From Escherichia coli (lineage in GTDB: Bacteria > Pseudomonadota > Gammaproteobacteria > Enterobacterales > Enterobacteriaceae), in NCBI RefSeq assembly GCF_036507355.1, contig NZ_AP027877.1: a stretch of DNA of 64,000 bases; one strand, given 5' to 3'. Below, in pieces: positions 8,885 to 11,071 of the stretch (positions within the stretch are counted from its first letter, which is position 1; each line of letters begins with the position of its first letter). The translations under genes and the position numbers were made by a program. A model generated the notes under the pieces. That model was not told the origin of the DNA and ran no database searches. It saw only the letters and a program-made list of their open reading frames with translations.

Positions 8885-11071
8885 ATGTCCGATCGTATCG
8901 ATAGAGACGTGATTAACGCGCTAATTGCAGGCCATTTTGCGGATCCTTTTTCCGTACTGGGAATGCATAAAACCACCGCGGGACTGGAAGTCCGTGCCCT
9001 TTTACCCGACGCTACCGATGTGTGGGTGATTGAACCGAAAACCGGGCGCAAACTCGCAAAACTGGAGTGTCTCGACTCACGGGGATTCTTTAGCGGCGTC
9101 ATTCCGCGACGTAAGAATTTTTTCCGCTATCAGTTGGCTGTTGTCTGGCATGGTCAGCAAAACCTGATTGATGATCCTTACCGTTTTGGTCCGCTAATCC
9201 AGGAAATGGATGCCTGGCTATTATCTGAAGGTACTCACCTGCGCCCGTATGAAACCTTAGGCGCGCATTCAGATACTATGGATGGCGTCACAGGTACGCG
9301 TTTCTCTGTCTGGGCTCCAAACGCCCGTCGGGTCTCGGTGGTTGGGCAATTCAACTACTGGGACGGTCGCCGTCACCCGATGCGCCTGCGTAAAGAGAGC
9401 GGCATCTGGGAACTGTTTATCCCTGGGGCGCATAACGGTCAGCTCTATAAATACGAGATGATTGATGCCAATGGCAACTTGCGTCTGAAGTCCGACCCTT
9501 ATGCCTTCGAAGCGCAAATGCGCCCGGAAACCGCGTCTCTTATTTGCGGGCTGCCGGAAAAGGTTGTACAGACTGAAGAGCGCAAAAAAGCGAATCAGTT
9601 TGATGCGCCAATCTCTATATATGAAGTTCACCTGGGCTCCTGGCGTCGCCACACCGACAACAATTTCTGGTTGAGCTACCGCGAGCTGGCCGATCAACTG
9701 GTGCCTTATGCTAAATGGATGGGCTTTACTCACCTCGAACTACTGCCCGTTAACGAGCATCCCTTCGATGGCAGTTGGGGTTATCAGCCAACCGGCCTGT
9801 ATGCACCGACCCGCCGTTTTGGTACTCGCGACGACTTCCGTTATTTCATTGATGCCGCACACGCAGCTGGTCTGAACGTGATTCTCGACTGGGTGCCAGG
9901 TCACTTCCCGACTGATGACTTTGCGCTTGCCGAATTTGATGGCACGAACTTGTATGAACACAGCGATCCGCGTGAAGGCTATCATCAGGACTGGAACACG
10001 CTGATCTACAACTATGGTCGCCGTGAAGTCAGTAACTTCCTTGTCGGTAACGCGCTTTACTGGATTGAACGTTTTGGTATTGATGCGCTGCGCGTCGATG
10101 CGGTGGCGTCGATGATTTATCGTGACTACAGCCGTAAAGAGGGGGAGTGGATCCCGAACGAATTTGGCGGGCGCGAGAATCTTGAAGCGATTGAATTCTT
10201 GCGTAATACCAACCGTATTCTTGGTGAGCAGGTTTCCGGTGCGGTGACAATGGCTGAGGAGTCTACCGATTTCCCTGGCGTTTCTCGTCCGCAGGATATG
10301 GGCGGTCTGGGCTTCTGGTACAAGTGGAACCTCGGCTGGATGCATGACACCCTGGACTACATGAAGCTCGACCCGGTTTATCGTCAGTATCATCACGATA
10401 AACTGACTTTTGGGATGCTCTACAACTACACTGAAAACTTCGTCCTGCCGTTGTCGCATGATGAAGTGGTCCACGGTAAAAAATCGATTCTCGACCGGAT
10501 GCCGGGCGACGCATGGCAGAAATTCGCTAACCTGCGCGCCTACTATGGCTGGATGTGGGCATTCCCGGGCAAGAAACTGCTGTTCATGGGGAACGAATTT
10601 GCCCAGGGCCGCGAGTGGAACCATGACGCCAGCCTCGACTGGCATCTGTTGGAAGGCGGCGATAACTGGCACCACGGTGTCCAGCGTCTGGTGCGCGATC
10701 TGAACCTCACCTACCGCCACCATAAAGCGATGCATGAACTGGATTTTGACCCGTACGGCTTTGAATGGCTGGTGGTGGATGACAAAGAACGCTCGGTGCT
10801 TATCTTTGTGCGTCGCGATAAAGAGGGTAACGAAATCATCGTTGCCAGTAACTTTACGCCGGTGCCGCGTCATGATTATCGCTTCGGCATTAATCAGCCG
10901 GGCAAATGGCGTGAGATCCTCAATACCGATTCCATGCACTATCACGGCAGTAATGCAGGCAATGGCGGCACGGTACACAGCGATGAGATTGCCAGCCACG
11001 GTCGTCAGCATTCACTAAGCCTGACGCTACCACCGCTGGCCACTATCTGGCTGGTTCGGGAGGCAGAATGA
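8885..11071 (+). CDS. glgB: 1,4-alpha-glucan branching enzyme
   Basis: 728-aa ORF; GH13 motifs; head of the glg operon. Confidence 0.95.

Follow-up and report, generated by a model that had tools for sequence, protein, structure and literature searches.

The stretch of DNA analysed here (64 kb, hereafter the window) comes from a chromosome of the E. coli/Shigella type and shares approximately 98% identity with E. coli ATCC 8739. Its genes follow the order yhhY, gntRKU, asd, glgBXCAP, an accessory cluster of three genes (A, B and C), glpD, glpEGR, rtc, malT, malPQ, feoABC, ompR-envZ, pckA and mrcA. Gene ends were taken from the RefSeq annotation of the syntenic region of ATCC 8739 and transferred to the window (Table 1). 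All transferred genes are intact open reading frames (ORFs), except for the lesioned accessory genes.

An earlier note on this DNA had listed four junctions at which the stop codon of one gene overlaps the start codon of the next, and had read them as sites of translational coupling. All four were present as listed when the sequence was read directly (two of the ATGA type, at glgB/glgX and ompR/envZ, and two of the TAATG type, at glgC/glgA and accessory B/C), and they agree with the gene ends of ATCC 8739. Sequencing errors at the junctions could be excluded: ATCC 8739 has the same sequence at all four, and 548 complete E. coli genomes contain the 71-mer around the B/C junction without a mismatch. 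Shared stop/start bases (NTGA or TRATG) were found at these four junctions and at feoB/feoC, and both overlapping frames are real genes (by the RefSeq annotation of ATCC 8739, and by Pfam and dN/dS for the accessory genes), though B lacks a start and C is truncated here. The feoB/feoC junction, of the same kind as the others, was absent from the earlier list; the Shine-Dalgarno (SD) region of feoC has a dG of -6.0 to the anti-SD (window median -5.3).

Table 1. Coordinates of genes, junctions and other features in the window
Feature	Coordinates	Strand	Basis or detail
glgB, 1,4-alpha-glucan branching enzyme; stop TGA 11069-11071	8885-11071	+	Intact ORF, 99% identical to ATCC 8739 glgB
glgB/glgX junction, ATGA (-4)	11068-11071	+	Read directly
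glgX, glycogen debranching enzyme	11068-13041	+	ATCC 8739 annotation transfer
Decoy ATGA at the glgX stop	13038-13041	+	ATG in frame with glgC, 7 codons 5' of the conserved start at 13059
glgC, glucose-1-phosphate adenylyltransferase; stop TAA 14352-14354	13059-14354	+	ATCC 8739 annotation transfer
glgC/glgA junction, TAATG (-1); glgA ATG 14354-14356	14352-14356	+	Read directly
glgA, glycogen synthase	14354-15787	+	ATCC 8739 annotation transfer
Intrinsic terminator after glgP, hairpin and U-run	18264-18297	+	dG -17.4 kcal/mol, z -4.1, 0/200 shuffles as stable
Accessory gene A, about 5 transmembrane (TM) segments, then a PstS-family PBP_like_2 domain	18382-19887	+	Pfam, dN/dS, hydropathy, ATCC 8739 RefSeq
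Accessory gene B, PstS-family PBP_like_2 lipoprotein	19913-20905	+	Pfam, ATCC 8739 alignment, dN/dS
Accessory B/C junction, TAATGATG; B stop TAA 20903-20905, overlapping ATG 20905, conserved ATG 20908	20903-20910	+	Read directly
Accessory gene C, truncated	20905-21381	+	Reading frame closed by a TGA at the very start of IS600
IS600 (IS3 family), 1264 bp	21379-22642	+	100% identical over 1262 bp to annotated copies; ends read directly
IS600 orfA	21443-21745	+	Pfam HTH_Tnp_1
IS600 orfB	21781-22599	+	Pfam rve
Displaced 3' remnant of gene C	22643-22774	+	Aligned part of the gene in ATCC 8739: residues 470-603
feoB/feoC junction, TAATG (-1), feoC start over feoB stop	43709-43713	-	Transferred RefSeq ends
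ompR, response regulator; stop TGA 50572-50574	49855-50574	+	ATCC 8739 annotation transfer
ompR/envZ junction, ATGA (-4)	50571-50574	+	Read directly
envZ, sensor histidine kinase	50571-51923	+	ATCC 8739 annotation transfer

In the operons of E. coli, and of prokaryotes in general, no kind of junction is commoner than the short stop/start overlap, which has long been known. Among the 27 same-strand neighbour pairs of the 64-kb window (insertion sequence left out), 5 overlap at -4 or -1 and 7 have a spacing between -8 and +6. In E. coli K-12, 707 of the 2,987 unidirectional pairs (24%) fall within -8 to +6, with -4 as the commonest spacing and -1 as the second (PMC10666635). The window is thus typical of E. 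coli operons with regard to junction spacing.

Overlap motifs as evidence for genes

The earlier note had used the overlap at B/C as support for the accessory ORFs. As a chance control, every stop in the window that follows 80 or more open codons was scored for an ATG at -4 or -1. Such an ATG was present at 28 of the 223 stops (12.6%; 13 at -4 and 15 at -1). Eleven overlap junctions are flanked on each side by ORFs of 80 codons or more, and only four of these correspond to the gene pairs of the earlier note; the remaining seven are not gene pairs (six involve off-frame ORFs and one is the decoy at the glgX stop). In Markov-random sequence, about two overlap junctions are found per 64 kb; the window's own off-frame ORFs are the more telling control. 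The decoy places an in-frame ATG over the glgX stop, upstream of a glgC start (13059) that is preceded by an SD and aligns at residue 1 in 78 of 78 species, which indicates that the motif can arise without being used.

The overlap motif alone is therefore weak evidence for a gene, and real pairs are separated from spurious ones by gene length and homology, not by overlap. The use of this result is mainly methodological: ORFs are poorly supported as genes by such an overlap, since most junctions of this kind (at least 80 codons on both sides) are spurious here, and real genes may still have an overlap that is lineage-specific. Its biological weight is small, because the core examples are already well studied.

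Conservation of the glg and ompR/envZ junctions

The conservation of the glg junctions was assessed in species-representative genomes, which were scanned with GlgX and yielded 80 loci of Enterobacteriaceae with GlgX 73-98% identical. The glgB and glgX genes overlap in 76 of 78 species (at -4 in 69 and at -1 in 7), and the two other species have spacings of +2 and +4, respectively. Conservation of an overlap among diverged pairs is an indirect sign of selection, and on this count the glgB/glgX overlap looks selected. For glgC/glgA, the -1 overlap was found in 46 of 76 species, and a spacer of 77-112 nt in the other 30 (Kosakonia, Buttiauxella, Atlantibacter, Phytobacter and others), so the overlap appears dispensable for this pair. 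The other two junctions of the operon are mostly spaced: glgX/glgC overlaps in one species of 78 (-7) and otherwise has spacers of 13-81 nt, and glgA/glgP shows essentially no overlaps (mostly 14-26 nt; a single value of -165 is an alignment artefact).

The sites upstream of the overlapping starts differ in strength. The SD of glgX is strong (GGGAGG, dG -10.3 to the anti-SD), that of glgA is fair (AGGAG, dG -6.6), and envZ has no canonical SD upstream (dG -5.7). The glgBXCAP genes form a single transcriptional unit according to Montero 2011 (as cited in PMC4301808), and the same source places a glgAP promoter inside glgC. With a promoter at that position, glgA must be able to initiate without a ribosome arriving from an upstream glgC.

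For ompR/envZ, metagenome contigs were scanned with a degenerate pattern of the OmpR C-terminus, and 67 of them had an EnvZ-like gene downstream. Overlaps were found in 30 of the 67 contigs (27 NTGA at -4 and 3 at -1), the other 37 having spacers or other arrangements; starts in this set were assigned heuristically and the contigs are phylogenetically non-independent. Since 37 of these OmpR/EnvZ-like pairs do not overlap, the overlap seems dispensable for pairs of this type. The ATGA was kept in all eight contigs with an OmpR at least 99.6% identical, and, judging from these contigs, the ompR/envZ overlap is conserved within the family and not beyond it. In the window, the DNA of ompR and envZ is 98.75% and 98.5% identical to ATCC 8739, respectively.

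The accessory cluster between glgP and glpD

The interval between glgP and glpD holds only genes A, B and C, with no pstCAB-type permease or ATPase genes adjacent. The intrinsic terminator that follows glgP precedes gene A and separates the cluster from the glg operon. A consensus scan of the accessory region for promoters and terminators returned no more sites than in shuffled sequences, and it also missed the clear glgP terminator, whose hairpin was borne out by folding (Table 1).

Genes A (with an alternative ATG at 18370) and B match Pfam PF12849 (PBP_like_2) with E-values of 1.8e-29 (103.8 bits) and 8.1e-30 (104.9 bits), respectively, against a gathering cut-off of 27; the cut-off of NCBIfam TIGR02136 (206.6 bits) was not reached by either (122 and 119 bits). 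Their PBP domains are paralogs that share 57% identity, relatives of A and B occur in Salmonella, Klebsiella, Leclercia and others, and the signal peptide of B in other strains reads MNKFTGVLLLGTALLAGC. The intact product of gene C is small (200 aa, with at least 4 TM segments by hydropathy). A search of 5.8 billion proteins found homologs of C only in Escherichia, and no function for C emerged from this search or from Pfam and NCBIfam, in which it has no family. All three genes are annotated by RefSeq in ATCC 8739, where A and B are named "PstS family". Comparison of alleles that differ by a dS of up to about 1 gave a dN/dS of approximately 0.1 (A), 0.11 (B) and 0.2-0.3 (C), and the synteny of the cluster is conserved in three Escherichia species. 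A, B and C are all under purifying selection and are genuine genes.

The cluster is not intact in this strain. In alignment with ATCC 8739, the conserved, SD-preceded ATG of gene B is ACG (19913-19915); the sole in-frame ATG that B could use lies at 19850, inside gene A, and would add 21 residues before the signal peptide. Among the 872 E. coli genomes that carry the 71-nt stretch around the B start, none has it in exactly this form, and the best matches are one base off. Gene C is cut after codon 157 or 158 of 200 by IS600, which was recognised by its identity to annotated copies, by the HTH and rve domains of orfA and orfB, and by a 3-bp target duplication (CAG, at 21376-21378 and 22643-22645). 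An IS600 at this site was found in no complete E. coli genome. Judging from these two lesions, the cluster in this strain is a decaying operon remnant and not a working co-translated unit. Annotation by analogy can mask such decay, here a lost start and an inserted IS600, in the strain at hand.

The overlap between B and C is limited to one type of allele. The junction lies within CAGGACAATAATGATG in the window, where it has two successive ATG codons, whereas in seven other alleles two nucleotides separate the stop from the start (TAA-NN-ATG). The homologous sequence ends in TAAAGATG in ECONIH1, E. albertii and E. marmotae, and in TAAAAATG in E2348/69, LF82, STEC1585 and a TW07509-like strain. 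The conserved start of gene C is therefore the second ATG (20908), and the overlapping ATG at 20905 is there only because the spacer happens to be TG in the ATCC 8739-type allele. On these alignments, the B/C overlap is lineage-specific, and the conserved architecture is a stop, 2 nt and a start. Reinitiation still works at a spacing of +2 (PMC6728339, PMC10666635), so what appears conserved is the tight packing and not the overlap. The only SD-like motif upstream of accessory gene C is a conserved CAGGA (dG -4.0; window median -5.3).

Two rival readings of the cluster were weighed against this evidence. That the accessory ORFs arose by chance and that their TAATG is a coincidence would fit the frequency of spurious-ORF junctions in the window (7 of 11) and the lack of a Pfam or NCBIfam family for gene C, but it is contradicted by the PBP_like_2 matches of A and B, by the low dN/dS of all three genes over alleles of considerable divergence, by the RefSeq annotation, and by the constant position of gene C in E. 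coli, E. albertii and E. marmotae. We consider this reading refuted, with virtually no probability left to it. Gene reality is settled far more firmly by Pfam, dN/dS and synteny than by the B/C junction. The other reading ascribes the junction motifs or the ACG of gene B to errors of sequencing or assembly. A single-base error is possible at the ACG, which none of the 872 genomes shares, but the agreement of the four junctions with ATCC 8739, the 548 genomes with the exact B/C 71-mer, and the clean ends and target duplication of IS600 all speak against this reading, and the loss of gene B would be plausible in a strain whose gene C fell to an insertion sequence; we regard such errors as very improbable. 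The claim of the earlier note that the accessory ORFs are genuine thus stands, though on grounds other than the overlap, which is a weak reason for it. Its further claim of a co-translated unit built on the logic of the core operons does not fit the window, where the cluster, with its altered B start and interrupted C, is not intact; the overlap, moreover, is lineage-specific. As a whole, the interpretation of the earlier note is supported in part.

Comparison among genomes points to the glgP-glpD interval as a variable cassette locus in Escherichia, in which A-B-C would be a genuine operon that varies within the genus. Of 5,426 complete E. coli genomes, 882 have A-B-C in full; ATCC 8739 and O157:H7 are examples of strains with the intact cluster. 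In other genomes, A is joined by a 236-aa and a 255-aa protein ahead of C; in LF82, fimbrial genes come first, then these two proteins, then C; E. albertii has a longer array; and K-12-type strains retain only a yzgL remnant. For the 236- and 255-aa proteins, Pfam, NCBIfam and the search of 5.8 billion proteins gave no function, and a literature search on yzgL returned nothing relevant.

Gene C is always the last gene at this locus, and the final 38 nt or so before it are homologous even where the upstream proteins are unrelated (their tails read ..YEASPESSGQ and ..YDASSESPGK); in E. marmotae, a 39-codon remnant of the upstream end is retained before C. It is conceivable, though in our judgement unlikely, that the last 38-60 nt before gene C form a portable module attached to C whatever gene precedes it. 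Such a module would consist of the shared tail ..Y-E/D-A-S-x-E-S-x-G-Q/K, CAGGA, and a TAA set 2 nt before the ATG, and its upstream partners would be the PstS-like B, an unrelated protein of 255-262 aa, or the E. marmotae remnant. If true, recombination at glgP-glpD would be constrained to keep the translation of an Escherichia-restricted small membrane protein coupled to the preceding cassette. This reading is speculative.

Probable translational coupling and known systems

The junctions are probably ordinary -4 (NTGA) and -1 (TAATG) overlaps between co-directional genes of E. coli-type operons, which would allow termination-reinitiation. A ribosome that terminates on the upstream gene would already sit on the downstream start, and the same ribosome could reinitiate there, often aided by an SD located in the last part of the upstream coding sequence. 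The output of the downstream gene would thereby be tied to upstream translation. We infer the behaviour of ribosomes at all of the junctions from architecture and conservation, and the dependence on reinitiation probably varies from one to the next. Reinitiation is likely for glgX. At glgA, coupling is probably optional, because this gene has its own SD and a promoter inside glgC, and for EnvZ, reinitiation is probably the main, though inefficient, route because envZ lacks a good SD. OmpR is often quoted as being in large excess over EnvZ. Its copy number is given in the literature as approximately 3,500 per cell. The coupling logic at the core junctions is standard and plausible.

Alternatively, the overlaps might be neutral by-products of tight packing and of drift in starts and stops, the downstream genes initiating independently at their own SD. 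The usable SD sites of glgX and glgA, the promoter within glgC, the long glgC/glgA spacers in 30 species, the unused decoy at the glgX stop and the origin of the B/C overlap from a 2-nt spacer that reads TG in one lineage are all in line with this, and one of five native E. coli overlaps, bioBF, was found not to be coupled (Huber 2019, PMC6728339). However, the glgB/glgX overlap is kept in nearly all species despite GlgX identities down to 73%, envZ retains its ATGA in all close relatives without a canonical SD, and the other four of the five tested native pairs, with -4 or -1 overlaps, couple translation by termination-reinitiation, with a loss of efficiency of 5-70% when the distance is +2 nt and of 80-100% when it is +38 nt (PMC6728339, PMC10666635). 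We therefore think neutral packing rather unlikely as a general account, and favour overlaps that permit reinitiation to a degree that differs among junctions. The predicted folds of 90 nt around six junctions were none more stable than those of shuffled sequences (z -0.08 to -1.7), which gives no sign of starts that could be opened only by upstream ribosomes; this result neither supports nor excludes coupling.

The closest experimental systems are those of Huber et al. 2019 and 2023 (PMC6728339, PMC10666635; reviewed in PMC12548453), which have the same ATGA and TAATG motifs between co-directional operon genes. Like pairs in those studies, glgX and glgA have an SD within the last codons of the preceding gene, and the requirement for an SD was found to differ between pairs (Huber 2019, PMC6728339). 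None of the pairs of the window was among those tested there. The accessory cluster corresponds to the yzgL remnant/PstS-family cluster between glgP and glpD, of which A-B-C is the intact form and the copy in the window a degraded one (B start lost, C cut). At the core operons, the genes, their order and their junctions are those of the glgBXCAP operon of E. coli (Montero 2011, as cited in PMC4301808), and ompR-envZ is the very ompB locus of E. coli, with nothing different, a response regulator and kinase given as an example of translational coupling (Comeau 1985, via PMC6557628).

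Stop/start overlaps and other close gene ends

The earlier note had listed stop/start overlaps, of ATGA or TAATG type, at glgB/glgX, ompR/envZ, glgC/glgA and the accessory genes B/C. This list lacks a junction of the same kind, that of feoB/feoC. The ATGA at the glgX stop is a natural decoy: its ATG lies in the glgC frame, the conserved glgC start being 7 codons further on and preceded by an AAGGAG SD, which shows that the motif may occur without serving as a start. An 83-codon ORF antisense to the asd start, most likely spurious, likewise ends in ATGA (overlapping the yhgN start) and exemplifies the ease with which this motif arises.

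Other gene ends are tight or overlapping, namely rtcB/rtcA, gntK/gntU (with TTG as the start codon of gntK and GTG as that of gntU) and the convergent glpR/rtcR pair. Among the comparison loci L038-L093 from other genomes, a glgC-glgA gap of 77-112 nt was found in about 30 species of Enterobacteriaceae (Kosakonia, Buttiauxella, Atlantibacter, Phytobacter and others), and a glgX-glgC gap of about 80 nt in Klebsiella, Raoultella and relatives.

Features discussed in the text (window positions unless a comparison locus is named)
Feature	Position	Strand	Detail
gntK/gntU	5321-5329		+3 nt spacing
83-codon ORF	7314-7565	minus	antisense to asd start; overlaps yhgN start at 7317
glgX stop ATGA	13038-13041		ATG in glgC frame
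Conserved glgC start	13059		AAGGAG SD
glgP-glpD interval	18254-22988		cassette site
Gene A	18382-19887		PBP_like_2
Gene B	19913-20905		PBP_like_2
Gene B start codon	19913-19915		ACG
Shared upstream end	20866-20905; L005 3664-3703; L010 4882-4998		precedes gene C
IS600	21376-22645		1264 bp; 3-bp CAG target duplication; within gene C
glpR/rtcR	26642-26660	plus/minus	convergent; 3' ends overlap by 19 nt
rtcB/rtcA	29651-29659		TAAATGATG; pair of ATGs in tandem (0 and +3 nt)
feoB/feoC	43709-43713	minus	TAATG; 1-nt overlap

Composition and damage of the accessory cluster

Accessory genes A and B share 57% identity in their PBP_like_2 domains, a level that suggests a tandem duplication. At the N-terminus of gene A, a domain of about five TM segments replaces the signal peptide. 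The label "phosphate ABC transporter" is doubtful for both genes because no pstCAB partner genes were found near them.

The start of gene B, conserved as ATG, is ACG in the window, and none of the 872 complete E. coli genomes that carry this stretch matched it exactly. Gene C, which encodes a small membrane protein, is interrupted by IS600, an insertion sequence typically hosted by Shigella, so that the window may derive from a Shigella-type strain; the element provides the stop codon of the interrupted gene and was absent from this site in all complete E. coli genomes searched. The ACG start and the insertion therefore point to pseudogenisation of the cluster in the lineage of the window.

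The glgP-glpD cassette site in Escherichia

Comparison with other genomes (loci L004-L013) revealed a cassette site of variable content between glgP and glpD in Escherichia. The site may hold A-B-C, A followed by 236-aa and 255-aa proteins of unknown function and C, fimbrial genes followed by the same two proteins and C, a longer array in E. albertii, or the yzgL remnant in K-12. In the forms seen, the last position is always taken by the Escherichia-only membrane protein C. The final ~38 nt of gene B are homologous to those of the unrelated 255-aa gene, and this end travels together with gene C. E. marmotae retains a 39-codon remnant of the shared end, with an internal ATG (19 codons) and a stop 2 nt ahead of the gene C ATG.
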